A DNA stretch of 64,000 nt from Acidobacteria bacterium bin61 (lineage in GTDB: Bacteria > Acidobacteriota > Vicinamibacteria > Marinacidobacterales > SMYC01). The stretch is from NCBI GenBank assembly GCA_963578475.1, contig CAUZCL010000003.1:27027-91026 (forward strand), read 5' to 3'. This document shows, in pieces, positions 1 through 61,617 of the stretch. The notes under the pieces are model-generated. The model saw nothing but the letters and a program-made list of their open reading frames with translations, did not search any database and was not told the DNA's origin. Both the position numbers and the translations under genes were made by a program. Position 1 is the first letter of the stretch. The number at the start of each line of letters is the position of its first letter.

Positions 1-917
<917 letters not shown>

Positions 918-1448: not shown

Positions 1449-1449
1449 G

Positions 1450-7922: not shown

Positions 7923-7969
7923 CGCAATGCAATATTTAAGAAGAGATCAATATTAAACGTACTCGGAGG

Positions 7970-19696: not shown

Positions 19697-19909
19697 TCTT
19701 TCGGTGAATCTAGGCAACCGTTGACGCAAAAACTTCGCATCCACTTACAGAGCAACCCGAAGGCACCCGAGCTCTTCCGCATGACCCGGGAAGGCTATCA
19801 ACGTCCCGATACCCCAAAGGTGAACACCTTGGACGTCGACCCGTCCCGTTGGACCATGGTGGAATTCGCGTCGCTAGGGGATAACCAACCCATCACGCGC
19901 CACTAGCGC

Positions 19910-20727
19910 TTGTCAAAGACGTCAACGCCTTGCGTCTCTACATTCTTGCCGGAACCGGAGGCGACCTTCGTGCCAACGCCGCGTCGACGACGTTCCAGTT
20001 CGCGGCATTCATTGACGACGAGGAGGACGGCGAGAACATTGGCGGCTTCACCGCACAGTGGACCCTGCCGCTCAAAAGCGGAGAACGCGTCTACGTCGCG
20101 ACCGTCCGCCATGACGAGTCCCGTCCGCCTTTCGCGTCGGCAGTTCGTGCAGCGAGCGCTCGCTGTTACCGCCGCGTTTCCTGCTTGAAGAGCCTCAGCC
20201 GTTCCGTGGAAGCTGCCGGTGCCACAAATCCGATCGTGCTGGACCGCTACGGTCCGCTTGTGCCAGATCCGCATCGAATCCTCGACTTGCCCGGAGGCTT
20301 TGGCTATCGCGTGATCTCCCGCACCGGTGACCGCATGGCCGATGGGTTGCTCGTGCCAGGTTTCCCCGACGGTATGGCCGCGTTCTCGGGGAGTGACGGC
20401 AAGGTGGCGCACGACGAGGCGCGTATGAAGCGCTTCGAACGTGAAGCTCATGTGCTCGCCTCGCTCAATCATCCGAACATCGTAGCGATCTACGGACTCG
20501 AGGACGTGGACGGGGTTCGCGCACTCGTGCTCGAGCTGGTGGAAGGGCCGACGCTCGCGGAGCGGATCGCTTTAGGTCCAATGACGGCTGAAGAAGTCGT
20601 ACGTATCGCCCGACAGATGGCGGTCGGGCTCGAGGCGGCGCACGAGAAGTCTGTGATTCATCGGGATCTGAAGCCGGCTTGCCATCACTCCAGATGGCTC
20701 TCGCATCGTATATGCGGCGACCGTTAG
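19910..20727 (+). pseudogene. Chimeric remnant: PhoX-like Tat-signal N-terminus (frameshifted) joined to an internal Hanks-type Ser/Thr kinase core fragment
   Basis: Frame 19910 gives MTSPVRLSRRQFVQRALAVTAAF (Tat motif, PhoX-like). Frame 19930 continues IVLDRYGPLVPDPHRILDLPGGFGYRVISRTGDRMADGLLVPGFPDGMAAF (PhoX/DUF839-like), then abruptly EARMKRFEREAHVLASLNHPNIVAIYG...HRDLKP (kinase subdomains II-VIb) and stops. No kinase N-lobe Gly-loop and no activation segment. Confidence 0.45.
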
Positions 20728-29163: not shown

Positions 29164-29359
29164 AGCACATGCCTCCAGCCTAGCCCCACAGTCGCATTGT
29201 ACTTTACGAGAGACGACTCCGCTAACCGGGCAGCTATTTCTTGTATTCCATGACGTTTACGGGATCTGGGCTCTCGAAAACGGACGCGGGTACGTCCACG
29301 AGCACCGCCATGTTCTCGTGCTTTCCCTCGCCACGACCGGCGGAGAGCATGATCCCACC

Positions 29360-29752
29360 CTACTTCTGCCAGTCTTGCCAGGGAATTTGAAAGCGCCGCT
29401 CTGGGTCGGAGGCCTTCGGATAGTAGTCCCATTGAGTGATCAGACGGGAATCCTCGTCGACGTAGACGTGGTACTTGTTCTCCGGAGTGCGGCCGACATC
29501 CTTGAAGGTCAGCTCTAGAACATCGGCTACCATGCCATCCACCGTCTCACCTTTGCCAAAATATTTCAAGGTGACGCCGCTGTCCTTGAGCTTGAACGGC
29601 ATGAAGACCCAGTACGAGTCGTTGATCCAGGCGCTCTCGGCATCGTGGAGTGCCTCCTCGAGAGCCGCCGCTTCGGTGACCTCCTCACCATTCTTCCAGA
29701 CGCGCCCTTTCTGGAGACTCAGGTTCATCAGGACGAGCATTACCCCCGTCAC
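29360..29752 (-). CDS. Hypothetical protein (possible fragment)
   Basis: 130-aa ORF overlapping the end of the DUF4328 gene. SYWVFMPFKLKD...KYHVYVDEDSRLITQWDYY is composition-typical of a beta-rich periplasmic domain. No recognisable family. Weak. Confidence 0.3.
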   Translation of the reverse strand: MTGVMLVLMNLSLQKGRVWKNGEEVTEAAALEEALHDAESAWINDSYWVFMPFKLKDSGVTLKYFGKGETVDGMVADVLELTFKDVGRTPENKYHVYVDEDSRLITQWDYYPKASDPERRFQIPWQDWQK

Positions 29753-30404
29753 GCGCTTTGTCCGTCTGGCGCCGATCGATCGCGCGCACCACCATCATGA
29801 GAAGAAGGGTAGCGAGAGCTCGGAGAGTCTCGAAGACCGTCAGGCTCCAGACCGTGGATTCCCCACCGAGGTTTTGCGCGATGATGTTCCACACGATGCT
29901 CAGAAGCCAAAACCCCCACCACATGGGGAGAATGGACGGCACAGTTCCAGAAACCCGCGCGACCCCCGGCTTTGGCTCGCTCGCTTGATAGATTTCCTTC
30001 ACGGCGCGATACGGACCGATCAGGTTCGCGACGGGAACAAAAGCGATCCCAGCGCTCCATCCGGGCGAGAAAAACATTCCTTCAGCGCCAAGCGAGCGCG
30101 CGTCGCGATTGGCGCGAAAAACCCATACCGAGAAACTCACCACCACGAGCGCAAGCATCGGCCACGTCAACGCCCAGCTCAGTTCGAGCGGGCCGGGAGT
30201 AAGGGTCAAGATCGCGTCCTGATAGCCCTCCCAGCGAAAAAAGACGGAGAGATAGAGCGTGGCCCGAAAGGCCCGAAGCGCGAGATCGACGAGCAGGACA
30301 GCGAGGAGAAGGGTCGCGGCGCCCGAGCTTTGCCTCGGCAAGGGCTGCGTGCCCTCCTCGGGAGGAGAGTAAGGATTCGCCCTTTCCGCCACCGCACGTT
30401 CCAT
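29685..30404 (-). CDS. DUF4328-like integral membrane protein
   Basis: Multiple TM helices with Trp-rich loops (PMWWGFWLLSIVWNIIAQNL, LTWPMLALVVVSFSVWVF). Start taken at the internal MERAVAERANPY. Confidence 0.5.
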   Translation of the reverse strand: MERAVAERANPYSPPEEGTQPLPRQSSGAATLLLAVLLVDLALRAFRATLYLSVFFRWEGYQDAILTLTPGPLELSWALTWPMLALVVVSFSVWVFRANRDARSLGAEGMFFSPGWSAGIAFVPVANLIGPYRAVKEIYQASEPKPGVARVSGTVPSILPMWWGFWLLSIVWNIIAQNLGGESTVWSLTVFETLRALATLLLMMVVRAIDRRQTDKARDGGNARPDEPESPERARLEEW

Positions 30405-30438
30405 TGCTCGTCTCGGAGCCCATCCTAGTCCCCAACAT

Positions 30439-31083
30439 TTGCCCAATCAAGGCTTGACTTCACCCTCCAAGACCTGTGTTTTTGAAACGTTCTCGAGATG
30501 TACGGGGAGAAAAGGCTCTCTCTTGCCATTTGACGACAACTTGAAGCCCAATGCAGGCCCTGTCGACTCGGAGTATTTTCGCGTGCTCGCCGAGAACTCC
30601 TCCGAGCGGATCTCGACCCTAGACCCCGACGGCACGATCCTGTTCATCAATCACGCGTTAGCCGATCTTTCGATCGAAGAAGTCATCGGCACCAACATCA
30701 TGAGCTACGTCGAAGAGCATGAGCGTGCGGCGTACGTGGAAGCTCTCGACGACGTTTACTCGAACGGTGTCATCCGCTCCCTAGGGCTGTCAGCAGCCCG
30801 GGGGAGTTGGCTCACGAGGCTCATCCCTATCAAAATTGACGATTTCGTTGAGACGGTTCTCGTCATAGCGACCGATCTGAGTGAGCGCGACGCGGTCCTA
30901 CTCGACATGACGATGCCACGGATGAGCGGAGAGCAAACGTTGGCCAGGCTCCGCCGCATGCGGCCCCAGGCGAAGGTTCTGCTCACGAGCGGCCATAGCG
31001 AACAAACAAGAGGTTTTCACGGACATTCGCGGGCAAGAAAGCCTCGGCTTTCCTTCAAAAGCCGTTTCGCGCCTCAGAACTGA
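30439..31083 (+). pseudogene. PAS-domain fragment fused to the C-terminal third of a response-regulator receiver domain (chimeric remnant)
   Basis: VDSEYFRVLAENSSERISTLDPDGTILFINHALADLSIEEVIGTNIMSYV (PAS fold) followed by VLLDMTMPRMSGEQTLARLRRMRPQAKVLLTSGHSE (REC beta3-alpha5 region without the phospho-acceptor Asp segment). Confidence 0.45.
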
Positions 31084-31454
31084 TCGACAGAATCCAGCAA
31101 GTGGTGAACCCGCGTCCCTGAGTCAAGCCGCCGGCCGCCTCGCAGCAGCGAAGCACTGAGCAAAAGGAAGTATTCAAAGCTCTCCCAGATATGCAGCTGA
31201 GGCATGAGCGGCTCGCTCGAGGCGGGCGTCCGGAGCGACGTCGAGCTCACGCAACATGGCGCCCAATGCCGGCGGTGCTCGAGCTCTTCACTCTCGATTT
31301 GCTGGATCTCTACGACTTCTAGAGCGTCTCGGAGCGAGCGCCAGTGCCCGCGATAGGCACGAGCAGCCCCGAGCTCCCCCGCATGCGCGTTCTTCAACAC
31401 CGCCACGAGAGCGATATGGGCCGAATCCCGGTCAAGCGTCACGAAAGGTCTCAT
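31074..31454 (-). CDS. Ferritin-like di-iron domain protein (COQ7/MiaE-like), probably degraded at the C-terminus
   Basis: NAHAGELGAARAYRGHWRSL...IESEELEHRRHW resembles the ExxH di-iron helices of the COQ7/ferritin-like superfamily. The last about 60 residues are low-complexity. Confidence 0.3.
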   Translation of the reverse strand: MRPFVTLDRDSAHIALVAVLKNAHAGELGAARAYRGHWRSLRDALEVVEIQQIESEELEHRRHWAPCCVSSTSLRTPASSEPLMPQLHIWESFEYFLLLSASLLRGGRRLDSGTRVHHLLDSVDQF

Positions 31455-31656
31455 CGCCCGGACTCCTCACAAATCATTATTCGAAGAACGAGGCTCCTTC
31501 GCCAGGGGTTTCAAGAGTGCAACGAAAGGGTTCGATCACTGCGCTGTGCTACGATCCCGAGACCGGAGGTGAGATGCGCAATGTCTTCTATTTGAACGAG
31601 ATCGCCCCGCCGCCAGACCGCTTCGGTTTGGACCAAGGCGGACAGGAGCTCGAATA

Positions 31657-33357
31657 GTGTCCAAAGAAACCTCCGACAAAGCACCTTCGCTCGATTTCAT
31701 CCGAACAATCATCTCGGAAGACATCGCAAACGGGAAGAATGATGGCCGCGTCGCCACGCGTTTTCCTCCCGAGCCGAACGGCTATCTGCACATCGGCCAC
31801 GCCAAATCGATCTGCCTCAATTTCGGGGTTGCTGAAGAATATGGCGGGACGTGCAACTTGCGGTTCGACGATACGAACCCGGCGAAAGAAGACGTGGAAT
31901 ATGTCGATGCTATAAAGGAGGACGTCCGCTGGCTCGGTTTCGACTGGGACGAGCGGCTGTATTTTGCCTCCGACTACTTCGAGAAGATCTATGACTGCGC
32001 CGTCAAGCTCATCCGGAATGGCAACGCTTATGTCGACAGCCTGAGCGCTGAGGAAATCCGTGAATATCGCGGTACGCTGACAGAGCCGGGTAAAAACAGC
32101 CCGTACCGCGAACGTTCCGTCGAAGAGAACCTCGACCTATTCAAGGGAATGCGCGCCGGCGATTTCGCGGACGGAACCCACGTCCTGCGAGCGAAGATCG
32201 ACATGGCCTCGGGCAATGTGAACCTGCGCGATCCGACGCTTTATCGGATCCGGAAAGTAGCGCATCATCGCACCTGCGACCAGTGGAGCATCTACCCGAT
32301 GTATGACTTCACCCACGCCGTCTCGGACGCCTTCGAGAAGATCACGCACTCACTTTGCACGCTCGAGTTCGAGGATCACCGCCCGCTCTACAATTGGTCG
32401 GTCAAAGAGACCGGCGTCGCGTTCAAACCTCGGCAAATCGAGTTTGCCCGTTTGAACTTGAGCTACACGATTCTCAGCAAGCGCAAGCTTCTGTGCCTCG
32501 TGCAAGATGGCCACGTCAGCGGATGGGACGACCCCCGGATGCCGACGCTCTGCGGATTGAGGCGGCGCGGCTACACGCCAGAATCCCTCCGAACCTTTTG
32601 CGCACGGATCGGGCTCGCGAAGCGCGACAGCCTCGTGGACGTCGCGCAGCTCGAGCACGCGGTTCGCGAGGACTTGAACGCCCTCGCCCCTCGCGTGATG
32701 GGTGTCCTCCATCCCCTCCGCGTCGTGCTCGAGAACTACCCTGAAGGCGAAGTGGACGAGCTCGACGCGGTGAACAACCCCGAGGACGAGAGCGCCGGGA
32801 CGCGCAAAGTACCGTTCTCGCGGGTTCTGTATATCGAGCGCGCGGACTTCATGGAGGATCCTCCGAAGAAGTTCTTCCGGCTCGCTCCTGGCTGCGAGGT
32901 CCGGCTTCGCTACGCTTATCTCATCACGTGCACCGATGTCGTCAAGAACGACGCGGGCGAAATCGTGGAACTTCGCTGCACTTATGATCCCGAAACGCGC
33001 GGCGGGACGCCGCCCGACGGGCGCCGCGTGCGCGGCACGCTCCACTGGGTCTCCGCCGATCACGCACTCGATGTCGAGCTGCGCCTCTACGATCGGCTCT
33101 TCTCGCGCGAGAAGCCCGACGACGTGGAAGAAGGTCAGGACTTCACCGCGAGCTTGAATCCCAATTCACTCGAGATCCTCGAAAGCGCCAAGCTCGAGCC
33201 AAGCGTGGCCGATGCCGCGCCCGGCACGCGTTACCAGTTCGAGCGGCAGGGTTATTTCATCGTCGACTCGGACGCGTCGGCCGACAAGCTCGTCTTCAAC
33301 CGTACGGTCTCGCTCAAGGATGCTTGGGCGAGGATCACGGCTCGTGGGTCGAAGTAG
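31657..33357 (+). CDS. glnS: Glutaminyl-tRNA synthetase
   Basis: 566 aa; class-I HIGH motif ([14 protein letters not shown]) and KMSKS-like ILSKRKL. GlnRS-specific N-terminal region. Confidence 0.92.
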
Positions 33358-33507
33358 CTACTTTCGGCTTTCTGCTCCGGCTACGTTTCTTGGTTTTCAC
33401 GGTTTCCGTTTTGTGAGTCAATATTAAAAAAACGTAGCGGAAAGATGATGGCGACACGGATCGTGGGAGTGTTATTCTCCGACAGCCCTCTTCCGAAAGG
33501 AGCCTGT

Positions 33508-35169
33508 ATGACGATTCCAGCCCTTCGCCTTGCTCTCATATTGAGTCTCGTCGCCTCGACTGCGCTCGCGGGTGACCGCCCGGCCAAAGGCGCGACGCTC
33601 GGCCGCTCGCCCGTGCTCGCCACGCACGGGATGGTGGCTACCAGCCAGCCGCTCGCGGCAGCCGCGGGGCTCCGGGTGCTCCAGGAGGGCGGCAACGCAA
33701 TTGACGCCGCCATCGCTACAGCCGCGGTGCTGAACGTCGTTGAGCCGATGATGTGCGGGATTGGCGGCGATCTCTTCGCGCTCGTCTATCACGCCGAGTC
33801 CCAAAAGCTCTACGGGCTGAACGGGACCGGGCGCGCCGGCTCCCTCGCCACCGCGGAAAAGATGCGCCAAGACGGCTACGAGCGCATGCCCAGCTCTGGA
33901 ATCTATGCGGTCACCGTTCCGGGAGCGCTCGACGGCTGGGAGCAGCTACGCTCGCGCTTCAGCAGCAAAAGCCTCGCGGAGCTCTTGGAGCCCGCCATCG
34001 GCTACGCTGAGAATGGGTTTCCCGTCTCCCAAATCATTGCCACCGACTGGAAAGTGGCCGAAGAGAAACTTGCACGCCATCCGGCGGCCGCCGCGAATTA
34101 CCTCATCGGCGGACGCGCGCCACGGCACGGTGAGCTATTCAAATCGCCCGACCTCGCCAAGACGTTCCGCATCATCGCGGACGAAGGACCGGACGCCTTT
34201 TACCGCGGGACCATCGCCCGAAAGATTACCGAGTTCATCATGAGTGAAGGTGGCTTCGTCACCTATGACGACATGGCTGGCCACTCCTCGACTTGGGTCG
34301 ACCCGATCTCGACGACATATAAAGACGCGACCATTTATCAAATCCCGCCGAACTCTCAAGGCTATGTCGCACTCGAAATGCTCAACATTCTCGAAAGCTT
34401 CGACGTCGCGTCGCTCGAGCATAATTCCGCAGAATATCTACACCTCCTCATCGAAGCGAAGAAGCTCGCTTTCGCGGACAGAAACGCCTATCTCGCGGAC
34501 CCCGACAAAGCCGACGTGCCGCTCGACAAGTTGCTGTCGAAGCAATACGCGTCGGAGCGGGCAAAGCTGATCGACCGCGAGCGCGCGGCCGGCGAAGTTC
34601 GTCCCGGTATGATCGACCCGACCGAAACCGTTTACTTGACGGTCGTCGACGAGGATCGCAACGTCGTGTCGCTCATCTACAGCGTCTTTTCGGCCTTCGG
34701 CTCCGGGCTCGTCGTTCCAGGCACAGGCATCGCGCTTCAAAACCGTGGTACCGGATTCTCTCTCGAGCCCGGCCATCCGAACGAGCTCGCGCCGGGAAAG
34801 CGCGCGCTTCACACGAACATGCCGGGAATGGTTTTCAAAGACGGCAAACCGTGGTTGAGCTACGGGGTGATGGGCGGCGACATGCAGCCACAGGGCCATA
34901 CCCAGGTGCTCTTGAACATGATCGAGTTCGGGATGAATGTCCAGGAGGCAGGCGAGATGGCGCGCTTTCGCCATTTCTCCGATCGCGCAGTCGGCTTCGA
35001 GTCCGGCATCGGCATCGAAGTTCTTCAGGCGCTCATCGAAAAAGGACACCGACCACGAATCTCGATGGGCGCCTATGGGGGCTATCAAGCCATCATGATC
35101 GACTGGGAGCAAGGTGTTTTGCTCGGCGGATCAGATCTGCGCAAAGACGGCGCAGCCATGGGCTACTGA
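33508..35169 (+). CDS. Gamma-glutamyltransferase family protein (second paralog, secreted)
   Basis: Start at MTIPALRLALILSLVASTALA signal. MCGIGGDLFALVY and small-subunit motifs YGVMGGDMQPQGHTQVLLNM. Confidence 0.85.
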   Translation: MTIPALRLALILSLVASTALAGDRPAKGATLGRSPVLATHGMVATSQPLAAAAGLRVLQEGGNAIDAAIATAAVLNVVEPMMCGIGGDLFALVYHAESQKLYGLNGTGRAGSLATAEKMRQDGYERMPSSGIYAVTVPGALDGWEQLRSRFSSKSLAELLEPAIGYAENGFPVSQIIATDWKVAEEKLARHPAAAANYLIGGRAPRHGELFKSPDLAKTFRIIADEGPDAFYRGTIARKITEFIMSEGGFVTYDDMAGHSSTWVDPISTTYKDATIYQIPPNSQGYVALEMLNILESFDVASLEHNSAEYLHLLIEAKKLAFADRNAYLADPDKADVPLDKLLSKQYASERAKLIDRERAAGEVRPGMIDPTETVYLTVVDEDRNVVSLIYSVFSAFGSGLVVPGTGIALQNRGTGFSLEPGHPNELAPGKRALHTNMPGMVFKDGKPWLSYGVMGGDMQPQGHTQVLLNMIEFGMNVQEAGEMARFRHFSDRAVGFESGIGIEVLQALIEKGHRPRISMGAYGGYQAIMIDWEQGVLLGGSDLRKDGAAMGY

Positions 35170-35177
35170 TTAACTGA

Positions 35178-36172
35178 TTAGCTGACTTGCGGGCGGGAGA
35201 AGGACGTCTCTTCCAAAAACCCGTCGGACGCGCTCGTTGTTTTGAAAAATCCTCTCGCGAGCAGCGAGTGGATATGCCGGAGCACCTGGAAGTCGGTCAG
35301 CTCTGACTCTTCCATGACGCGGACGATCGTCTGATAGCGGATGAGATATTCGTAAATCTCGAGCTCATCGGTGTTGAGTGCGCTGACGGCGAGGTCGCAA
35401 GCGTCGTTGAGCCCGATCTCGTAAACGAGTGGCGGGGGCTTCGAGGTCAGCCGCTCGAGGGCTTCAATTTGCTGCATGGCCTCCAGAATGAGTGTCTCCG
35501 TCTGACCTGCGATCGTCGTTGGTACGGTCGCATCTGTGGGGAACTCGAAGATCTCGTAGCGGCCTTTCTGTATCCCGAGGATGCGGTGAAGCGCTTTCTC
35601 TTTGCGCACGTTTCCGGCCTGACAGTGCACGATCTGACCGTCTCTGAGATAGATTCGGCCGTCGCCGCTTTGATTCCGTATGACGATCATTCCCGTCATC
35701 CCGTGAGTGGCGAGCTGTATCAGCAAATCGGGTAGCGTCGTGTCGATGCGCTCCGGAGACACCGTTAGGTGTGTTGCGGACACGGCGCTTTGATACGGAA
35801 GGATATTCCCGACCGGTCCCGATACGAAACGGGCTGGCCAGCTTGGTTTCTCGCCGACGGGGCTTGAGCGTAACGTTCAGCTGGAAGCTCCCGACCCGGA
35901 TGCGGTCGCCGGTCACGAGAGGTTGCCGGCTCACAGGTGCGTCATTCACGTAGGTGCCGTTGGTGCTCCCCATATCGCGAATGAGCAGCTCGCCCCCCCC
36001 TCGTTAAGAATCTCGAAGTGATAATTCGACACTCAGTTCGAGCGAAGCTGGATATCGTTCGTATGATGGTGCCCAATCGCAACCCGAAACGTCTCCTTGA
36101 GATCGAAGCTATGGCCCTGACGATCGGTAGCTAACTGCAGCACCATCTCGTGAAGCGGCAAGTCGTTCTTAG
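35178..36172 (-). pseudogene. FHA-domain / DUF4388-domain protein with an in-frame TGA, a frameshift in a C8/G8 homopolymer, and a second frame change at the domain junction
   Basis: MDHAKNDLPL...FRVAIGHHHTNDIQLRSN-TGA-VSNYHFEILNEGG, then (after the G8 run at 35993-36000, minus strand) ELLIRDMGSTNGTYVNDAPVSRQPLVTGDRIRVGSFQL (FHA). The DUF4388 domain (LPDLLIQLATHGMTGMIVIR...) follows in the 35178-35783 frame. Confidence 0.55.
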
Positions 36173-36311
36173 CATGGTCCATAGACGGGAGAGCCCCACG
36201 CATTTAAAGCAAGTGTGATGCCAACTAGCTATCCGTCAGGGAACAAAGAACTTTTACCGACGCACGACTTTTGAGTCGTGGGGATTCACCCTCGACCGGC
36301 GCTGCATTCTG

Positions 36312-37420
36312 TTATGCAAGCCGCGCCAACCCAAAGAACGGATTGGGAGGGGCCTCGCCCAATACGACCTCGGCAACATGCTCCCCCAGGGCCGGTCCGT
36401 GCTTGTAACCATGCCCTGAACCCCCGCCGACCACCCAGACGTTATCCGCATCCGGATGACGGTCGATAATGAAGTTATGGTCGGTGCTGTTCTCGTATTG
36501 ACACACACGTGCTTCTACGAGCGGGGCGCCCTTCATGCCGGGAAAGCGAAACTCCATATAGTCGCGCGCCGCGGCGATAGATTCCTCCCGCGGGAGGCGC
36601 TCCATCGTCGTCGGATCCACCGGCTCGCCGTTCGTATCATCCGCGATTTTGAACCCGCGCCAATTACTGCCGGGAATGCCGTAATAAAGCCGCGCGCCGT
36701 TATCGATCCAGATGGGGCAAACCCCTTCGAGGTAACGCGTATCCCCGAGAGGTGTCCCGAAATAGTAAATCTCTTGCCGCGTCGGCGTGATGAACGTCTC
36801 GCCGAGCTCGGGAAAAAGACCACCGAGCCAAGGGCCGCAAGCAAAAACGTAGTTGTCCGCACTCAACGTCTCGCCGTTGGAGAGAACAACGCCTTTTCCA
36901 CTGCGCTTCACGGCGCTGTGAACATAGGTGCCGCCGAGCTCGATGAACGCCTCGAGCACGGCTTGGCACCCGCGCCGAGCGAGAAGATAGCCGACGTCCT
37001 CTTCGTAGATCGCCCGTTGAACGCCGTCGAAATTTATCTGCGGGAAGCGTCGGGAGGCTTCGCTCACGCTCAGCTCTTCGAAGACAACACCACCTTTTTC
37101 AGAACCTGGACCGCGGCTCGCTCATAGGCATCGTCCGCGCCCGCCATCCAAAGACCGCCCGTTCGACGGTAGAGCTTGATGTCCCATCGCTTCTCGTACT
37201 CTTTCCAGAGCTCGAGCGAGCGCACAACAAAGCGCGTGTAGATCTCGTCGGCACCATAGGTCGCGCGGATAACGCGGCTCTCACCGCCCGAGCTCGATCG
37301 CGAATGCCCCGGCCCCCACGCATCGACGAGCGTTACCGAAACACCTTTGAGCAACAGGTGAAGCGCCGTCCAGCCCCCGAAGGCACCGGCGCCAACAACG
37401 ACTGCAGTAGATTGCGTCAT
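36312..37420 (-). pseudogene. FAD-dependent oxidoreductase of the sarcosine oxidase/MSOX/DAO family, split by a 1-nt frameshift at about 37093-37095
   Basis: 37070-37420 encodes the dinucleotide-binding N-terminus (AVVVGAGAFGGWTAL). 36312-37067 encodes the rest (FEELSVSEASRRFPQ...VVGGGSGHGYKHGPALGE). Restoring one G in AAAAAGG(G)TGG joins them. Confidence 0.6.
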
Positions 37421-39489
37421 GGCTCAGTCGACACCCCCATCCCTTTACGATGCTGTCCAAACCAATCCAGGATATAGAGCTGCGTTCGGATGAAGTTCGA
37501 CGGCATCGAGCTCGTTCCGTGAAATTCCTTGTTGAAGCGAAGGAGCGCGGTCTCGACGCCGAGAATCTTGAGCGCTTGGTAATACTCCTCGGTCTGGCTC
37601 ATCGGCGTGCGCAAATCGAGTTCGCCCGTCATTAGAAGGGTGGGCGTCGTGACATTCCCGACATACATGAGCGGCGAATGTTCGAGATATTTTTCGGCGT
37701 TGTCCCAAGGGTAACCGTTGAATCGGTAATAGCCCCAAAGGGTGATGTCGGCTGTTCCCGCGAAGCTCATCCAGTTCACGACGGGACAGCGCACCGCCGC
37801 CGCGGCAAAGCGATCCGTCTGGCCAATCGCCCAGCTCGACAGCACGCCACCCCCGCTACAGCCTGTGACGTAGAGCCGGTCCGCGTCTATGTAGCCTTTT
37901 TCCAGAACGTGATCGACCCCCGCCATGAGATCCTCGTGGTCAACGCTTGGATAGCCGTTGTCGATGGCGTTTCCGAAGTCGGTACCATATCCCGTGCTTC
38001 CGCGCGGGTTCGTGTACAGAAGCACGTAGTCGTTCGCGGCGTAGTTCTGAAACGAATTGTTGAAGCCGACGTTGTACATGCCGTGGGGTCCCCCATGGAT
38101 TTGGAGAATCAACGGGTAGCGTTTCGAGCTGTCGTAGCGCGGCGGTTTCACGATCCAACCCTGGATGCGCGCGGCATCCTCAGTAGAGGATTCATACCAA
38201 ATCTCTTCGACTTCGCCGAGCTCGACGCCCGCGAGCACGTCGTCGTTCACATGCGTCAGCCGTTTCATCTCGCTCGGGCGCGACATCGAGAAGGCCACGA
38301 CATCGGGCGGAACGTGAAATGAAGACCGGATGGCCACGGCCGTCCCATTCTCGGCAACGGAGCCGAGTGTGAGCATGTGCTCTCCATCCGTGAGCTGTTT
38401 CAACCCGCCATTGAGCGACGCAGAGTGCACGTTGCGAGCGCCGCGATCGTCGGCCATAAAGTAGACGGCGCTGCCGTCGGCAGACCAGACGAGCCCACGC
38501 ACGTCTCGGTCGAGCTCGGAGCAAATGTTCCGCATCGCGGTGCCATCGATATTCACGACATAGAGGTCGCTCACGCGATACGTCTGTGCGGTCCAGTCAT
38601 AGCCGGAGAACGCGACCGTCTTGCCGTCGGGCGAGACGACGGGCGAGGTCCATGGACCTCGCTTCGACGTAATGGCCGCGATGTCGCCCGAGACGATGTC
38701 GACGCGGTAGATATGGGACTCGCGATATTTCACATCCGCGTCGTCCTCCATCGCGCCGTCGAAAACGAGCGCTTTGCCATCGGGCGTCCAGTCGATGCCG
38801 GCGCCGTAATCGAGTCCGACCGCACCTCGCGAGCCCACGTGCCACTTCCCTTCCGTGAGCTGGCGCGGCGAGCCACCATCGGCGGGAACGAGGAAAAGGT
38901 GCCGATAGCCTTCCTCGAGAAAGCCGACGCGGTCTTGGCGAAAGTGCATGTTGCGGACGATGCGAGGCGTCTTGGTCCAATCGGCCCCTTCCGGCGGAGA
39001 GGGCATGGAAGGCAGGTCCCACGTCTCTTTCGCGGGAACGATCATCGTGAAGGCAATGCGGGTGCCGTCCGGCGACCAGTGCAGATCCCGCGGCGTTGTC
39101 GTGACATGCGTTACCTGCGACGTCGCGCCTTCCGCGTCCATCCACCGCACGAGTATCTGCTTCCCTTTGGGCTCGCCATCGGCCAAGTAAGCGAGACGCG
39201 TTCCGTCCGGGGACCAGCGCGGGCTCGAGCCATTGACGAGGAACCGGTTGCGCGTTCCGTCGGTGCCTACCATCCAGAGCTCTGAATCCCAGCGATCGTC
39301 GATCCGGTTCACCATCGACCGCGTATAGACCGTGCGTTTGCCGTCGGGTGAGATCTGGGGGTCGCGGACGCGCTCCCAATCGAGAATATGGTCTGCCGTG
39401 AGGCGGCCTTTACTGGCCGTTTCCTGCGCAGCAGAGGATGAGGCCAAGAAAATGCTCGCAAGCAGCCAGTACGTCGATCGACGAGTCAT
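37417..39489 (-). CDS. S9-family serine peptidase (prolyl oligopeptidase/acylaminoacyl-peptidase type) with N-terminal beta-propeller
   Basis: Internal ATG at 39489 gives the signal MTRRSTYWLLASIFLASSSAAQ. Repeated WSPDG propeller motifs. Catalytic GCSGGG (GxSxG) and C-terminal Asp/His region. The upstream in-frame extension is read-through from the NPP pseudogene. Confidence 0.85.
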   Translation of the reverse strand: MTRRSTYWLLASIFLASSSAAQETASKGRLTADHILDWERVRDPQISPDGKRTVYTRSMVNRIDDRWDSELWMVGTDGTRNRFLVNGSSPRWSPDGTRLAYLADGEPKGKQILVRWMDAEGATSQVTHVTTTPRDLHWSPDGTRIAFTMIVPAKETWDLPSMPSPPEGADWTKTPRIVRNMHFRQDRVGFLEEGYRHLFLVPADGGSPRQLTEGKWHVGSRGAVGLDYGAGIDWTPDGKALVFDGAMEDDADVKYRESHIYRVDIVSGDIAAITSKRGPWTSPVVSPDGKTVAFSGYDWTAQTYRVSDLYVVNIDGTAMRNICSELDRDVRGLVWSADGSAVYFMADDRGARNVHSASLNGGLKQLTDGEHMLTLGSVAENGTAVAIRSSFHVPPDVVAFSMSRPSEMKRLTHVNDDVLAGVELGEVEEIWYESSTEDAARIQGWIVKPPRYDSSKRYPLILQIHGGPHGMYNVGFNNSFQNYAANDYVLLYTNPRGSTGYGTDFGNAIDNGYPSVDHEDLMAGVDHVLEKGYIDADRLYVTGCSGGGVLSSWAIGQTDRFAAAAVRCPVVNWMSFAGTADITLWGYYRFNGYPWDNAEKYLEHSPLMYVGNVTTPTLLMTGELDLRTPMSQTEEYYQALKILGVETALLRFNKEFHGTSSMPSNFIRTQLYILDWFGQHRKGMGVSTEP

Positions 39490-39539
39490 GAGCTCCTCCT
39501 TTGATCGTGGTGCGAGTGTAAGCGCGAATATCGCCGAGA

Positions 39540-40966
39540 TCAACGCTGGCTTTCGAGCTGTGCCAACGGGCCGGCGTAAGCGGTAAAGTCGATGTGGTGA
39601 GTCACCGCGTCCTCGACCTCGCTCCTTTGGAGAATCTCCGTCATTACAACGCCTGTCGCGCTCGGAAGATTGAGCCCGAGTAGGTGCGCGATGGCCGGAG
39701 CGACGTCGAGGTTCCGAACGTGACCGACCCGCTGGCCGCGCGATTCCCACACCCGAGGCGACGAAGGCCGGGTACATGCGGGGATGGGACGGCAGGTACC
39801 CGTGCCCGTGATAGGCCGTTGCCCGAGGCCGACGCTCGGTGGACGAGCTCTCCGCGTCCGCGACCGGGAAAGTCTCGATATCGCCGACGATCGCGTATTG
39901 GCCTTGGACGTGCGGGTCTTCCTCGTAGCGCGGGAAGCCGAGGTCGTGAAAATCCTGGGGTCGAAGGATGCGCGCGACACCGCGCAGACTGAGCGCCTCT
40001 TCGAACACGCGCTCGAGCACCGCTTCGTCGCGCGCGAGATCCGCGGCTTCAACGTACAGGGACCAGCCCGATCGCATGAGGCGTACACGGTCGGCAAGCC
40101 CGTATGTTGGAAGAGTGGATGCAGATTCACTTCGTGGCGCACGGTGTGGAAGCCGTGATCGGAAACGATGAAAAACGTTGTTTTGTCGGAGAGCCCTGCC
40201 TCGTCAACCGCCCGCATCAGGATGCCGACGGCGTTGTCCGCGGCGGTGATCGCCTCTTTCGACCGGTAGTGGTCGGGTCCGTACGCGTGTTGGATCTCGT
40301 CGGTGACAAGGAAGTGAATCGCGAGAAGCTGCGGCCGGTAGCGTTCGAGCACATAGGCTGCCGCGTCGGCGAGGATGGCATCCGCGACGCCTTTGCGATT
40401 CCGATCCATGTACCACGCGTAGTAAAGTCGATCGGGATGCCAGCTTTCCTCAGCTCTTCGAGAAAAGCAGGGTCCGCCGCCTTCGGGTCAGCCGTGTCTC
40501 CGTCGAAGACTTCGGGAATGTTGTAGTCGATCGAAGGGTCTTGATAGTTCTCGGGCCAATAGAAAGCGGCCGTTATCAACCCTTTTTGCTTCTCCGCATT
40601 GAAAATAGTGGGAACGCGCACGGATTCCGTGTGCGGCTTGTTGGTGAAGTGAAAGCGCTCGCCCGTCTCTCGGTTGACGACACGGTTCCCCACCACGCCG
40701 TGCACGCGCGGCATCACACCCGTCACGAGCGTCGTGTGGCTAGGATGCGTCAGGCTCGGATAGACCGTCTCGCTGCTCTTCGCCCAAACGCCGGTCTCGA
40801 TCAGCTTGCGGATGTTCGGAAGCACGAGCTCGCGATCGTCGAGCTGATAGGTCGCGAGCCCGTCGATCGAAACGAGCACGACGTGCTCCGGCTGAGCCCC
40901 GGCGCCGGCCGCGAGCGCCAGGAAAGGAAGTATGAGGTAGCGCCTCACCACGTCGGACTTTAACAT
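39540..40966 (-). pseudogene. Nucleotide pyrophosphatase/phosphodiesterase (alkaline-phosphatase superfamily, NPP-type) with at least 3 frameshifts
   Basis: Consecutive conserved blocks lie in three frames: signal and VVLVSIDGL...THPSHTTLVTG (40217-40966); LLAIHFLVTDEIQHAYGPD...FFIVSDHGF (39540-40409 frame); RATAYHGHGYLPSHP (40077 frame); and GHVRNLDVAPAIAHLLGLNLP...* (back in the 39540 frame). Confidence 0.6.
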
Positions 40967-40972
40967 AGCAGG

Positions 40973-41566
40973 ATGCTCGCGCTCGCCTTACTCCTCGCGG
41001 GGCCTTTGACTCTGGAGGTTCCGATCTATCTCGGCGCCGAGCTCCACGAAGAAACGCTCATGAACGCGCTCCGAGAGACCGCACGCATTTTAGAGCTGGG
41101 CGACATCCAGCTTCGCTTCGACGTCTCCCCGGACCAGTCAACGACCCGCCCGCTCGTAACGGTGAGCGTACAGCCACGGCCGGCTCGCTTCAAAGTGCAT
41201 GGATGCAGCCGCGACCGCCACGACCACCGGCTCGGCCATACTCATCTGCGCTCACGCCGCATTACCCTCTGGTCGGAGCAAGTGGCGCGCGCCGTTGACG
41301 GGAACTGGGACGGCAAAGAGCTCCCCAATGTCAACGAGCACACCTATGCTCGTGCGTTAGGCCGGGTCCTCGCCCATGAGCTCGGCCACTTGCTCCTACG
41401 CCTGAACGGGCATCGCGACCGAGGTCTGATGCGGTCCGCTTTCTCGCATCGAAGCTTGACCGCGCGCGGACGCCGCGCTTTTCGCTTCGCCGAGGAAGAT
41501 CTGCAGGCGATCCGAGAGACGCTTCTGCGAGCACATCTCGCAAGAGCTGACCGTTGCGCACATTAA
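40973..41566 (+). CDS. Hypothetical secreted protein with an HExxH motif (putative zinc-dependent peptidase-like)
   Basis: N-terminal hydrophobic signal MLALALLLAGPLTL. VLAHELGHLLLRLNGHRDRGLM contains HExxH...H. No confident family assignment. Confidence 0.4.
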   Translation: MLALALLLAGPLTLEVPIYLGAELHEETLMNALRETARILELGDIQLRFDVSPDQSTTRPLVTVSVQPRPARFKVHGCSRDRHDHRLGHTHLRSRRITLWSEQVARAVDGNWDGKELPNVNEHTYARALGRVLAHELGHLLLRLNGHRDRGLMRSAFSHRSLTARGRRAFRFAEEDLQAIRETLLRAHLARADRCAH

Positions 41567-41569
41567 GTC

Positions 41570-42660
41570 CCGGAGACCCTTTCCACGAACCGCATCAGTT
41601 GTTCGCCGTCGTCGCGCGCGATCCGTTCGTCGAGCACACGATCCTGGGCGGAAAGGACGCGGTCGCGTAGCTCCGGATCCGTCACCAACAGATGCGCGAT
41701 CTCGTCGATCTCGTCGATTTTTTCTCGTGCAACAAAATACCGCCCCCACCAAGCGTCTCACTGACGGCCCCCGTGTCATAGGAGATGACGGGAACACCCA
41801 TCTCGTAGGCTTCGAGCAGGGGGGGCGCAGAACCCTTCGTGCTCGCTCATACACAAGAAGACGTCGGCGACGCGATAATAGGCGACGAGCTCTCTGGTGC
41901 TCACGCGACCGGGGAACTCGACGTTCTTGAGATCGAGCTCGTAGGCGAAACCAACGAGAGATTCGTAGTAGCGCTCGAAGTCGCGCCATTCGCCAACGAA
42001 GATGAGTCGGCACTTCCTATCGATGAAGCGCTGGTAGTATTTGACGACCTTCATGACGTCTTCGAGACGCTTGTTGGGGATGACGGGTCCAACGAAGAGG
42101 AAGTTCGTCAAGTCGTCGCCGAAGAGCGCCTCCACCACCGGGCTCGGGGACGCCGCCAAACGCTCGGGATCGGACAAAAGCGGGAGGACGCCCGTAGGCT
42201 GAAAACCCAGCTCTTCGAGCTCGCTTCGGTTGTACTCGGAAACACCTAAAGCGAGTGCGGTGCGCTCCGCGAACGTCGCAAGCTCCTGCCGTCCGCGCAC
42301 GCATTGTCGGGCAACTTTGGGCGCGAAGTCTGCGAACCAGTGAGCGGGCGTGATGTTGTGGTAGCGAAGCAAGAGCCGGTCGGGAAGCTCTCGCGCGAGC
42401 GAAGCGCTCTTCTAGCCGATTGCAAAATGCAGCAGCAAGACGTTGTCCGGCGATGACACCGACGGGTATTCGGAGAGCTCTCGGCCGCGCCCCGACATCG
42501 CCGAGTCTGTCGACTCGGCAAAGATCTCGGATTCCACGCCGTGGGATCGAAGCACCGACTGGATTCGGAGTGCCTCGTTTCCGATGGCATCACCGAAAGT
42601 CAGTGAGGCCACCATCTGATGAACGAGCATCGAACGACGCCATCTTGTCACCTTTCTCAA
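41570..42660 (-). pseudogene. GT4-family (GT-B fold) glycosyltransferase with two frameshifts, one in a G7/C7 homopolymer
   Basis: N-terminal MVASLTFGDAIGNEALRIQ...LLLHFAIG (42412-42660), then FLFVGPVIPNKRLEDV...ADVFLCMSEHEGFCAP (41776-42372), then C-terminal ...LLEAYEMGVPVISYDTGAV... in a third frame after the run at 41819-41825. Confidence 0.55.
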
Positions 42661-42754
42661 TAAGGTCTACCAACCTCGAGCCCACGCTTGATCTCACCCC
42701 GGGAGCGGCCTACTATGCCGAGGAATTGGAACCCTTAAATAAGGAGTCGCTCAC

Positions 42755-43852
42755 ATGACGAAGCTAGGCATCACGAGTGCTCTCTTGTTCGCGCTCGTAG
42801 CAACATGTTCAGGCATCGCGATGGCCGAACCGGTCCCCGCGGACGGCGGTCCTCAGTTTCAATCTATCGGACCGCTCACGTTTGGCCCGGACGGTATTCT
42901 CTTCGCCGCCGATAACAAAGCAGCAAGGATTTACGCCATCGACCTGGGTGACCACGCGGCCGGCAAGACCGCGGGCGCTGCGGACACCGAAGCCATCGAC
43001 CAGAAGATCGCGAGCATGCTCGGCACGGATGCGCGCGAGCTCACGATCACCGACCTCGCCATCCACCCTGAATCTCGAAACGCCTTTTTATCGGCGCAGC
43101 GGGGCCAGGGAGATAACGCCCAAGCCGTCTTGCTCCGTGTCGACGGTGCCGGCGAGATCTCTGTCATCTCGCTCGCACAGCTGAAATACACCTATGTCGA
43201 GATCCCGAACGCACCCGAGGCCAACCCGACCGCGCGCCGCGATCCTCGCAAGGCGACGATTACGGACATGGCCTATACCAGCGGGCGGGTCTTCATCGCG
43301 GGCCTTTCGAACGAAGAGTTCGCGTCGAAGCTGCGCTCGGTGAAATATCCGTTCGACAGCCTCGACGGCGGCACGAGCGTCGAGATTTACCACGGTGCCC
43401 ACGGCGCATGGGAGACGCGCTCCCCTGTTTACACTTTCGTCCCTTACGAAGTCGACGACGAGCCGCACCTCATCGCCGGCTATCTGTGCACGCCTCTCGT
43501 CAAGTTCCCAATCAGCAAACTCGAGGCTGGCCAAAAGCTCGTCGGCACGACGATTGCGGAGCTAGGCAATCGCAACCGCCCCCTCGACATGGTCGTCTAC
43601 TCGAAGGACGGCAAGGACTTCATCCTGATGTCCAACACGAGCCGCGGCGTCATGAAGATCCCGACCGACGGGTTCGGCTCCCAGGCGGGCATCACCAAGC
43701 CCGTCGACGGCGAGAAAGAGGGTGTCAGCTACGAGACCATCACGGCGATGACGGGCATCGAGCAGCTCGACCTCTTCGATGACAGTCACTCCATCGTTCT
43801 CGCGCGCACCGATTCCGGTTCGCTGAATCTCGAGAAAGTCGCGCTTCCGTAA
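42755..43852 (+). CDS. Secreted protein of unknown function
   Basis: 365 aa; signal peptide MTKLGITSALLFALVATCSGIAMA. No recognisable family motif. Codon usage and periodicity consistent with coding. Confidence 0.6.
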   Translation: MTKLGITSALLFALVATCSGIAMAEPVPADGGPQFQSIGPLTFGPDGILFAADNKAARIYAIDLGDHAAGKTAGAADTEAIDQKIASMLGTDARELTITDLAIHPESRNAFLSAQRGQGDNAQAVLLRVDGAGEISVISLAQLKYTYVEIPNAPEANPTARRDPRKATITDMAYTSGRVFIAGLSNEEFASKLRSVKYPFDSLDGGTSVEIYHGAHGAWETRSPVYTFVPYEVDDEPHLIAGYLCTPLVKFPISKLEAGQKLVGTTIAELGNRNRPLDMVVYSKDGKDFILMSNTSRGVMKIPTDGFGSQAGITKPVDGEKEGVSYETITAMTGIEQLDLFDDSHSIVLARTDSGSLNLEKVALP

Positions 43853-43863
43853 GGAGCTTCGCA

Positions 43864-44931
43864 TTGGAAAGATGGCGGCGTCGCCTCGCGTGCGGCGTCG
43901 CCCTTTTTTTTGCGCCCTGGGCGAGCGCCGGGCAGGCGGAGATTCGAGTCTCTCTCGTCGACGGACAGGTCGAGATCGCGGGCCTTACGATTGAAACGAT
44001 GGAGGCGGGGGCTGCGCGCGTCCGCGTCTCGGTCGGACCCGACGCTCCGGCGATCCTCGGTGAGTATCGCATCGCCGGTGGGCGCCTCTACTTTCAACCC
44101 ATGTTTCCTTTCGATCCGGGGCGTGAATACTTCGTCCGCGTCGACGGTGGGCGCGAGCCTTTCGTCGCCACGGTGGCGCTCCCAGCGCGAGACTTGCAGC
44201 CCACGACAACGGTCACGCACATCTATCCTTCGACCGACACGCTTCCGGAGAACCAGCTCAAGTTCTATATTCACTTCTCGGCGCCGATGGCGGGCGGCGA
44301 CGGCCTTTTGTTCGTCAAGCTTCTAGACGCGAGTGGAGAAGTCGTGGTCGATCCGTTCCTGCCTCTCGGCAACGCCTTTTGGGGTCGCGACCACCGACGC
44401 TATACAGTGTTCTTCGATCCGGGCCGCGTGAAGCGTGGCATCCTACCCAACGAAGAGATAGGTCGGCCAATCCTCGAGGGACCACGCTATGTGCTCGTCG
44501 TCGACCCCGCGTGGCGAGACGCAAAAGGCGTACCGCTCGCGGAGCCCTTCCGCAAAGCGTTCATTGCCGGACCGCCCGACGAGACACCGATCGACCCGAA
44601 GTTGTGGACGCTCACACCGCCGCGAGCCGAAACGCGGGAGCCGCTCGCGGTAGATTTTCCCGAACCCTTGGACCGAGCCGTCCTCGCCCGCGCGCTCGCG
44701 GTGGAGAACGTCGACGGGGAGATCGAGATCTCGCGGGACGAGACGCGCTGGTCGCTCATCCCAGAAAAGCCTTGGCAAGCGGGCACATACCATCTCGTAG
44801 CACTCACGATCCTCGAGGACCTCGCCGGGAATCAAATCGGGCAGCCCTTCGAGGTCGATGTGTTCGCGCGCATTGACAGCCCCGACGACGACACCGAGAC
44901 GCACCGCCTGCCGTTCGTGGTGCGAGACTGA
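43864..44931 (+). CDS. Secreted protein of unknown function (probably co-transcribed with the preceding gene; 11-nt gap)
   Basis: 355 aa; hydrophobic N-terminus LACGVALFFAPWASAG. No family recognised. Confidence 0.55.
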   Translation: MERWRRRLACGVALFFAPWASAGQAEIRVSLVDGQVEIAGLTIETMEAGAARVRVSVGPDAPAILGEYRIAGGRLYFQPMFPFDPGREYFVRVDGGREPFVATVALPARDLQPTTTVTHIYPSTDTLPENQLKFYIHFSAPMAGGDGLLFVKLLDASGEVVVDPFLPLGNAFWGRDHRRYTVFFDPGRVKRGILPNEEIGRPILEGPRYVLVVDPAWRDAKGVPLAEPFRKAFIAGPPDETPIDPKLWTLTPPRAETREPLAVDFPEPLDRAVLARALAVENVDGEIEISRDETRWSLIPEKPWQAGTYHLVALTILEDLAGNQIGQPFEVDVFARIDSPDDDTETHRLPFVVRD

Positions 44932-44933
44932 AT

Positions 44934-45839
44934 CTACTCCGTCTCGATAAGCGCTAAAAGAGCCCAGCCCGTCGTCGAAATGTACTGGGCGTAGCTTATC
45001 TGCCCTGCGGGCCGTGTCGTTTCCGGCCAGCTTCCATCATCGAGCTGATTCTCGAGCAAATAGCGTCGTCCCGCCTGCACTTTGTCCTCATGGCCGCCGA
45101 CACGCGATAAAGCGAGGATCACGAGCGCGGTGTCGAAAGGCTCGGCCGCAGAAGTGACGTAGGGTCCCCATCCTCCCGAGGGCGCGTGTCCGGCCGCGAT
45201 CAGCTCCAGGCACTTCTCGCGCTGGACGATAGCGGCCGCGTCTTCCGCTTCGGCAAGGGCAGCGAGGACCGCGGCGGCCGCGAGCACGGTCTTGACTTCG
45301 ACATCGCGAAAAAAACGATAGGTGCGATCGAGCTCAGCGGAGAACCGTCCTGAGTCCGCAGCCATGAGCACACGCTGGGCGACCGATGTGGCGAGAAAAG
45401 TTCCATAGGTCGCGGGCGAGCCGATGCTGCCGCTCACGTCTAGCTTCCACGAGCCGTCGGGCTTTTGGTCGGACGCCACGAGCACGGCCGCGCGGTCGAG
45501 CGCGCTCTCATCTTCGATGAGGCCCACATCGATAGCATCGAGCAGCGCGCTCGCGAACTGGATCCGCGCGAGCACTTCGTCGCTGAAGGCATCGGCTCCT
45601 TTTTGTTCGGACCATCCCGCGGGGTCCGCAAGCCAATCGACCGTGACGCGCATCGACTCCGGAGGCACCGCGTGCCCCGCACGTCTGGCGGCGAAGAGCG
45701 CCCGCACCGCATCACCATTGTTGTGGCACGAAAAGCATTGGTTCTCCGCGGGCCAAGCCGGCACCTCACGCGACAGAAACGCGATCGCGCGCTCCTCGGC
45801 GGCGCCGAGGGCAAGTAAGAAGAGGAACGAATGAATCAT
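44934..45839 (-). CDS. Prenyltransferase/squalene-oxidase (PFTB-type alpha-alpha toroid) repeat protein with an N-terminal CxxCH motif
   Basis: 301 aa; signal-like MIHSFLFLLALGAA. CFSCHNNGD (CxxCH, c-type haem-binding consensus). Repeated QxxDGSW motifs (DQKPDGSWK, NQLDDGSWPE). Confidence 0.65.
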   Translation of the reverse strand: MIHSFLFLLALGAAEERAIAFLSREVPAWPAENQCFSCHNNGDAVRALFAARRAGHAVPPESMRVTVDWLADPAGWSEQKGADAFSDEVLARIQFASALLDAIDVGLIEDESALDRAAVLVASDQKPDGSWKLDVSGSIGSPATYGTFLATSVAQRVLMAADSGRFSAELDRTYRFFRDVEVKTVLAAAAVLAALAEAEDAAAIVQREKCLELIAAGHAPSGGWGPYVTSAAEPFDTALVILALSRVGGHEDKVQAGRRYLLENQLDDGSWPETTRPAGQISYAQYISTTGWALLALIETE

Positions 45840-45880
45840 CGCGCTAGAATCGGAATGAGCTCCAAGAGAAAACGGTCGAG

Positions 45881-46826
<946 letters not shown>

Positions 46827-46837
<11 letters not shown>

Positions 46838-47765
46838 CCTTGCCTTTGCCTTGCTCGCAGCAACTACGGGTCAGGCGCAAGACTACCCCGCTGCGCGCCG
46901 CGACGTGCGCCACATCATCCCTTGGGGCGCTGGCGGCGCCACCGACACGGCGATGCGCGGGTTCATGCAGTATTTCGAGAAACACCTCGGGACGTCGGTC
47001 GTCACCGAGAATATCCCCGGAGGCTTGAGCGCAGTCGGCCTCCTGCGCCTCAAGATGGCGCGGCCCGACGGCTATACGATCGGCACCTTGACCTATGATG
47101 TGCTGACATTGTCGGCACAGGGACTCGTGCCGATAGCGTGGGAGGACTTCGAGCTCATCGGCATGGTCACGGAGCATCCGAGCGCGCTCATCGTTCGCGC
47201 GGAGCGCTTCCAAACACTCGAAGTTTTTCGTGAAGAGGCTGCCGCTGGGGCGCGGCTCAAAGTCGGGAACGTGGGTACGGGCGGCATTTGGCATCAGCAT
47301 GCCGCGGCGATGGAGAAGGCTCTCGCGATTTCTCTCACGCACATCCCCTACGAGGCCGGCTCGGGCGCACAGCTCACAGCGCTTCTCGGAGGCGAGGTCG
47401 ACGCGGCCGTGGCAAGCTTACCCGCATCCTTACCGTATGTGCATGAAGGCACCTTTCGGGTCCTCGCGGTAATGTCCGAGGAGCGCGACACGCTCGTGCC
47501 CGATGTGCCCACGTTTCGCGAGAAAGGGTTCGATATCACCCATGGAGGCTTTCGTGTGCTCGCGGTTCCGAGGCGCACCCCGGAAGACGTGCGCCGCCAA
47601 CTCGAAGCGGCGCTTCGCGCGGCCTGGAACGACCGCACGTTCCAAGCGTGGGCCAAAAAAGCGGTGATCGGCGCTCGTTTTCGCGACGCGAACGAGACAC
47701 GTGTTTATCTGCGCGACACAGCGGCGAAAGTCGCTGCCCTCATGAAAGTGCTGGAGCTATCATGA
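46827..47765 (+). CDS. tctC: Tripartite tricarboxylate transporter substrate-binding protein (Bug/TctC family)
   Basis: 312 aa; signal peptide. IIPWGAGGATD and the overall Bug-family pattern. Confidence 0.8.
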
Positions 47766-59516: not shown

Positions 59517-59639
59517 CCTGACTCCAGCCGGTGGCAGTCCGCGACCCAGTTGCTAAACTAAGGCCATAGTTCTCGAACCATCCAGTAAAACTTCCTGAAA
59601 TTCCAAGGCCGCTCTTTCTTAGGGGCGACGGGTCTATAG

Positions 59640-61595: not shown

Positions 61596-61617
61596 ACCGC
61601 CCTCAATCCCCCCCCCG

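Follow-up and report, generated by a model that had tools for sequence, protein, structure and literature searches.

The window, i.e., the whole 64-kb stretch of DNA that was analyzed, has a composition of 60.5% G+C and carries a series of genes interrupted by frameshifts, premature stop codons, and deletions. The original prediction had named five tracts, all of which are present at the positions given: a C8 run at 35993–36000, a G7 run at 41819–41825, a CC with an adjoining T5 run at 37093–37099, a C5 run at 9233–9237, and a C9 run at 61608–61616. It had also placed a frameshift in or next to each of them, which held for the C8 run in an FHA-PatA_N gene and the G7 run in a GT4 glycosyltransferase gene, was right at 37093 as to a frameshift but not as to a change in a run, and failed for the C5 run and the C9 run.

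When genomes were scanned with the S9 peptidase of the window, which is intact (37420–39489, minus strand), the window was assigned to Acidobacteriota, Vicinamibacteria, Ca. Marinacidobacterales. The 886-aa ORF at 37420–40077 gave no match in an exact-protein look-up, and public gene calls begin the S9 peptidase 196 codons later, at a length of 690 aa. Two relatives, the MAG N075bin57 (L013; 96% amino-acid identity) and the chromosome OZ253507.1 (L014; 94% amino-acid identity), are syntenic with the window from 29.2 to 49.2 kb, the nucleotide identity being 83–94% per block and mostly 88–93%. At 10.2 Mb, the latter chromosome is very large for a marine MAG. Outside the syntenic part, relatives were obtained by homologue searches followed by contig look-ups. 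A lineage of 98% nucleotide identity (L173 to L175) and a contig of ∼88% identity (L176) cover positions 1–9178, and L177 (98.4% identity) and L178 (∼90% identity, a 4.1-Mb contig) together span 56.2–64 kb. A scan of metagenome contigs with the S9 peptidase revealed one further close contig (L093) among the matches listed, the others being mostly distant homologues. Several of the relatives carry IS transposases of the DDE_Tnp_1 and ISL3 types (L014 14488–15852, L176 4604–7215, L178 5688–7223), and one relative's IS copy is inserted in a gamma-glutamyltranspeptidase gene. No IS element was found within the window itself.

The FHA-PatA_N (DUF4388) pseudogene (35178–36182, minus strand) carries three lesions, while its orthologue is intact in the relatives, with 343 aa in L013 and 333 aa in L014 and the FHA domain at residues 44–107. 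As predicted, the C8 run (35993–36000; C8 on the plus strand, G8 on the coding strand) lies within the FHA domain and is a frameshift site, where the window has a +2 insertion relative to the CCAGCC or TCAGCC of the two relatives. Since the relatives have these interrupted sequences, C8 is a derived tract in a dead gene and not an ancestral repeat. An in-frame TGA in the same domain (36033–36035, minus strand) corresponds to CGA (Arg) in both relatives and represents a C-to-T change at a CpG. The second frameshift is a +1 change from G to GG at 35815–35816 (minus strand) and lies outside any run. Together the +2 and +1 changes return the frame, with stop codons in between. Because of the upstream stop and the second frameshift, the ORF is not restorable by any change in the length of C8.

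Similarly, three lesions were found in the GT4 glycosyltransferase pseudogene (41563–42630, minus strand), which is intact with 355 aa in both relatives. The G7 run (41819–41825; G7 on the plus strand) is located within the Glycos_transf_1 domain and is indeed a frameshift site, being expanded by +1 relative to G6 in L013 and L093 or GAGGGG in L014. A second frameshift, which was absent from the original list, is the T6 run at 41718–41723 (minus strand), a –1 contraction of the T7 of the relatives. The third lesion is an in-frame TAG at codon 73 (42412–42414, minus strand), where the relatives encode Ser. The upstream TAG and the second frameshift mean that no length change of G7 restores the ORF. 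The changes from G6 to G7 and from T7 to T6 are probably textbook slippage. A mutual rescue by the paired frameshifts (+2/+1 in FHA-PatA_N and +1/–1 in GT4) was considered and rejected, as both genes have intervening stops as well as upstream nonsense codons; by estimate, two random indels cancel about half of the time.

In contrast to these two genes with three lesions each, the DAO-family (MSOX-like) pseudogene (36312–37420, minus strand) has a single frameshift, which splits the public gene calls into 116 and 251 aa, whereas the gene is intact with 373 aa in L013 and 369 aa in L014. The frameshift predicted at 37093–37099 proved to be real, but not the proposed contraction of CCC to CC: the lost base is the lone G of CCGAC (∼37091; deletion site 37091–37099, minus strand), and the adjoining T5 arose by substitution. 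The phosphofructokinase (PFK) pseudogene (45836–46812, minus strand), which is intact in L013 and L014 (323 and 324 aa, respectively), has lost its start region through a 12-nt deletion between ATCGT direct repeats (46795). Some 75 nt further downstream on the coding strand, a +2 insertion (46720) is found where GC/AC dinucleotides occur, and the third lesion is a premature stop at 45881–45883. As for FHA-PatA_N and GT4, an altered tract length could not repair this gene.

Over the syntenic part of the window (29200–48000 in the comparison with L013), 10 of the 19 ORFs that are intact in L013 are either broken (seven) or deleted (three), and one more is clipped at its C-terminus. The seven broken genes encode PFK, GT4, a Phosphodiest-SnoaL protein, DAO, FHA-PatA_N, a PAS histidine kinase with a response-regulator domain that has lost 1.29 kb, and a 265-aa ORF product. 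Among the nonsense changes are CGA to TGA, a Ser codon turned into TAG, and Glu to stop. A reassignment of stop codons, considered for the in-frame TGA in FHA-PatA_N, was rejected, since the in-frame stops are a mixture of TGA and TAG and since TAA, TAG, and TGA all end ordinary genes.

Lesions were also observed elsewhere in the window. Truncated Pfam matches were obtained for Tannase (11–169 of 490), Na_Ala_symp (141–385 of 392), and M28 (1–96 of 193), and Peptidase_C25 is split over two frames. In addition, a PhoX fragment (2–74 of 515) and a Pkinase fragment (39–127 of 263) share one open frame at 19885–20724 (plus strand), which looks like a chimera generated by deletion.

At the start of the window, the C5 run (9233–9237) has no lesion attached to it and lies in an orphan stretch (9179–9417) between two homology breakpoints. 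It had been proposed that this run separates a membrane N-terminus from the gluconate dehydrogenase subunit 3. This proposal had to be abandoned, as the breakpoint is at 9178, 55 nt away from the tract, and the N-terminus is the remnant of a different gene. The Gluconate_2-dh3 remnant (8712–9178, minus strand) lacks ∼47 N-terminal codons, and its homology to the intact 202-aa Gluconate_2-dh3 of L173 in the 98% lineage ends at 9178, a rearrangement or deletion breakpoint. The window lacks everything between Gluconate_2-dh3 and APH, an interval of 8.8 kb in L176. Compared with the 416-aa gene in L173, GFO_IDH_MocA is missing ∼92 codons, with the frame kept. The two BLAST blocks share 8 nt where they meet (3640–3647), suggesting that this deletion was mediated by microhomology. 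Beyond position 1 of the window, every assembly has CutC called as two ORFs of 134 and 114 aa (L001 14249–14994), and the pseudogenes thus seem to continue past the window. Within the 98% lineage, a HEAT-repeat gene is split in L173 (∼5523) by a G3-to-G2 deletion corresponding to window position 5430, while it is a single 939-aa call in L174; the split reflects either true polymorphism or a fault in assembly.

Toward the other end of the window, the C9 run (61608–61616, plus strand) belongs to the 22 nt that separate the stop codon of a channel gene (61593–61595) from the ATG of the CaCA (Na_Ca_ex) gene at 61618. The predicted position directly upstream of the CaCA start was therefore correct, but the tract is no frameshift site, being intergenic, and CaCA is full length (61618–62757, plus strand; 379 aa), with homologues of 378–384 aa at 100% coverage. 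The tract is C9 in L177 of the 98.4% lineage and C4 in L178 of the 90% lineage, and no Shine–Dalgarno-like motif was found flanking it. The gene upstream is a pseudogene of a Castor/Pollux-type channel (59636–61595, plus strand) that is broken into four pieces and is intact with 653 aa in L178. Its –1 deletions at 59857 and 61406 were found in the window only, while the TAG at 60388–60390 appears to be common to L177, as judged from a break in the L177 gene calls at the matching place; L177 has a –1 deletion of its own at 60051. An Omp85/BamA-like gene (56721–59044), which is intact with 727 aa in L178, contains an in-frame TGA (57483–57485) and ends at residue 518 of 793. Directly next to it, on the other strand, lies a truncated Ser/Thr kinase gene.

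The reproducibility of these lesions was assessed with matching contigs that were gathered by exact-protein look-ups with four window proteins. They stem from two JGI assemblies (3300031801 and 3300031802), four Logan assemblies (SRR9039920, SRR9039929, SRR9039963, and SRR22804948), and two MEGAHIT (k141) assemblies from ENA (ERZ27247690 and ERZ27247695), the sequencing platform being deduced from the assembler names. In megablast comparisons the contigs were 99.95–100% identical to the window, with zero gaps in ∼190 kb of alignment. Each contig differs from the window by 0–3 SNPs, and they are therefore separate consensus sequences. Across contigs L001 to L012 and L179 to L183, 0–3 SNPs and no indels per 6–21 kb indicate a near-clonal population; the SNP sites are 6705, 7037, 9970, 45732, 49352, 56019, 56079, 56133, and 63805. 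Differences in gene calls between samples (e.g., TctA with 386 versus 494 aa) do not represent lesions, as the underlying DNA is identical.

By searching with the flanking sequences in these consensus sequences, a single length was found for each tract in all assemblies covering it, namely five each for C8, CC with T5, G7, and T6, four for C5, and three for C9. No variation in tract length between samples was thus seen at the consensus level in the 3–5 covering assemblies per tract, and the lesions in FHA-PatA_N, GT4, and PFK are present in every assembly. One SNP of JGI 3300031801 recurs in SRR9039920 and SRR9039963, and re-assembly may be the origin of the ENA contigs; as some assemblies may share raw runs, the number of independent read sets per tract may be three rather than five. 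Even so, the agreement extends over at least three sequencing runs and three assembly pipelines.

The original prediction had regarded runs of 7–9 G/C as rare by chance in coding DNA. However, first-order Markov simulations gave 4.7 expected G/C runs of at least 7 nt against four observed in the window, so that such runs are not over-represented, and runs of at least 6 nt are even depleted (seven observed versus 20 expected). Fourteen small frameshifting indels of the window lineage were localized, at 8697, 35815, 35993, 37091, 39736, 40105, 40426, 41717, 41819, 46720, 48667, 48978, 59857, and 61406; for those at 39736, 40105, 40426, 48667, and 48978 a single comparator each was available, and the direction of change is deduced. 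Runs of at least 6 nt make up 0.27% of the window, yet they hold three of the 14 indels (binomial P ∼7e-6), while the other 11 lie outside such runs and also outside those of at least 5 nt. Slippage at runs is therefore a real but minor source of lesions, and the majority of lesions are found elsewhere.

A comparison with the orthologues of the relatives, which had been proposed as a check for shared tracts, showed that the tracts are not shared: the relatives have CCAGCC/TCAGCC, G6/GAGGGG, and C4 at the C8, G7, and C9 sites, respectively, which identifies the tracts of the window as derived. Several other long runs of the window are derived as well, C6 (4695–4700) and A7 (45309–45315) through substitution, and the change from C4 to C9 at 61608–61616 is a gain of 5 nt. 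As far as these alignments go, they hint at a tendency of runs to grow in the window lineage. Long runs in intact genes are stable, e.g., the T8 run at 43904–43911 is also T8 in L013. Taken together, replication slippage, as originally proposed, is a good explanation for the origin of G7 from G6 and of T6 from T7 and for the growth of the two C runs, while the two further proposals of phase variation and sequencing artefact did not hold up (see below).

In three-way alignments the lesions fall on the window branch. The deletions in a GMC oxidoreductase are shared by the window and the 98% lineage, while the window alone has the deletion in GFO_IDH_MocA, the truncated Gluconate_2-dh3, and the indels at 8697, 59857, and 61406; the decay is thus stepwise. 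On the window branch, the four comparable pseudogenes have accumulated 58 non-synonymous and 118 synonymous changes (ratio 0.49), and the ratios on the branches of the relatives for the same genes are 0.49 and 0.43. Since the ratio of the window branch matches those of the relatives, the branch was mostly under constraint and inactivation is recent. Relaxed selection after inactivation was not detectable in the window-branch ratio of these four pseudogenes. An unraised ratio fits a very recent inactivation and by itself is no proof of lost function.

We conclude, with a probability of about 90%, that the frameshifts are real, that they are fixed, and that they mark pseudogenes in a lineage with a recent burst of gene loss. 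Reproducible tract lengths, intact orthologues in the relatives, derived tracts, and genes with several lesions were all directly observed. As to the underlying process, a large part of the genes in a near-clonal population of an uncultured marine acidobacterium has been disabled or lost in the recent past through ordinary mutation, including homopolymer slippage (G6 to G7, T7 to T6, and growth of C runs), single-base gains and losses away from runs, nonsense substitutions, and deletions of 12 nt to several kb. Slippage would be the mechanism at the runs, and relaxed selection or a population bottleneck may have caused the burst. Once a gene was dead, further hits would accumulate, which would account for the three lesions each in FHA-PatA_N, GT4, and PFK. 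A point against this explanation is that DAO carries one lesion only.

Homopolymer basecalling or assembly errors in genes that are really intact would likewise produce apparent frameshifts, and two of the frameshifts are indeed in runs of 7–8 G/C, where a one-base change at either would fix the frame locally. However, contigs from at least three runs, assembled by three pipelines, all have the same tract lengths, and the ∼190 kb of alignment is free of indels, which makes an assembly artefact very unlikely. Moreover, runs account for no more than three of the 14 frameshift indels, the CCAGCC of the relatives implies that C8 is not a miscalled C9, and miscalled homopolymers cannot explain the nonsense substitutions and kilobase deletions in the same genes. 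We therefore give this explanation very little weight. It is just as improbable that the G/C tracts are contingency loci at which slippage toggles the expression of FHA-PatA_N, GT4, or CaCA. Although poly-G or poly-C tracts of 7–9 nt are the classic substrate of such phase variation, and one of them is in a glycosyltransferase gene and another just upstream of a start codon, the tract length is constant among samples in the consensus sequences, C9 is unchanged in L177 at 1.6% divergence, and the tracts are absent from the orthologues of the relatives. In FHA-PatA_N and GT4, no tract length yields an ORF in view of the upstream stop and the second frameshift in each, and C9 has no flanking Shine–Dalgarno-like motif.

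Some of the broken genes could also still be expressed via recoding, e.g., by –1 ribosomal frameshifting at G_AAA_AAG in DAO or by transcriptional slippage on G7 or G8. The DAO deletion lies directly 3′ of this dnaX-like heptamer on the coding strand (window 37089–37100, minus strand), and a –1 slip there would restore the frame and give KKGGVVFEEL in place of the KKVGVPFEEL of the relatives. The Lys-Lys codon pair of the heptamer is found in the window and not in the relatives, and DAO has no other lesion and a window-branch ratio of non-synonymous to synonymous changes of 0.46, which matches that of the relatives. On the other hand, the heptamer is non-canonical at its first base, and no stimulatory RNA structure was found downstream of it, the 73 nt on its 3′ side folding no better than shuffled sequences (z = +0.66). 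Furthermore, slippage cannot bypass the nonsense codons in FHA-PatA_N and GT4, the neighboring genes are plainly decaying, and the relatives have single unshifted ORFs, the heptamer being present in the window only. The position of the DAO deletion directly after G_AAA_AAG, the sole basis of the recoding reading, is compatible with chance, and we consider recoding improbable, if marginally less so than the two explanations above.

With fixed pseudogene lesions as the preferred explanation, the frameshifts need no correction and are not regulatory switches, and annotation should call the affected genes pseudogenes. A broader and more tentative reading, based on 64 kb plus flanks, is that a near-clonal marine lineage is at an early stage of reductive evolution. 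About half of the genes of a conserved 20-kb block, with a phosphofructokinase and an Omp85-family protein among the genes affected, would have been disabled or deleted since the split from the ∼90% relatives, and decay would be ongoing relative to the 98% lineage. If this is true, it would point to a recent bottleneck, a change in lifestyle (such as host or particle restriction), or a lost DNA-repair function. An acidobacterium from plankton or sediment whose pseudogene density is typical of bacteria newly restricted to a host would represent an unusual example of ongoing genome erosion outside symbiosis. The relatives are available in three tiers of 98, 90, and 88% identity, which let single lesions be ordered in time. 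A literature search on Marinacidobacter, acidobacterial pseudogenes, and the sample accessions yielded nothing relevant. Although such lesions arise by familiar mechanisms, the lineage is undescribed as far as the literature was searched, and so is its apparent genome erosion.

Phase variation through poly-G/C tracts at contingency loci is known from Neisseria, Haemophilus, and Campylobacter. The window resembles these systems in having tracts of 7–9 nt in or just upstream of genes, one of which encodes a glycosyltransferase, but its tracts do not vary in length, lack conservation in relatives, and are found with genes that are otherwise disabled. Homopolymer indel errors are familiar from 454, Ion Torrent, and nanopore assemblies, where they likewise cause apparent frameshifts at mononucleotide runs. 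In contrast, the lesions of the window recur in independent assemblies, some of them made by a short-read assembler (MEGAHIT k141), and most lie off runs, with substitutions and large deletions alongside. In Buchnera and Blochmannia, transcriptional slippage on poly-A tracts rescues frameshifted genes, and the window shares with them frameshifted genes with homopolymers in a decaying genome. Its runs, however, are 7–8 nt of G/C and not long A/T runs, and FHA-PatA_N and GT4 are beyond rescue because of their upstream nonsense codons. Reductive evolution with mass pseudogene formation is known from Mycobacterium leprae, Sodalis glossinidius, Shigella, and Yersinia pestis. Unlike these, the organism of the window is a marine one from the Vicinamibacteria that is uncultured and known through metagenomes alone; 64 kb plus flanks of it were examined, and the window has no IS element. 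Like these reductive genomes, it combines recent inactivation through mixed lesions (frameshift, nonsense, and deletion) with intact orthologues in relatives, a near-clonal population, and related genomes that contain IS elements.
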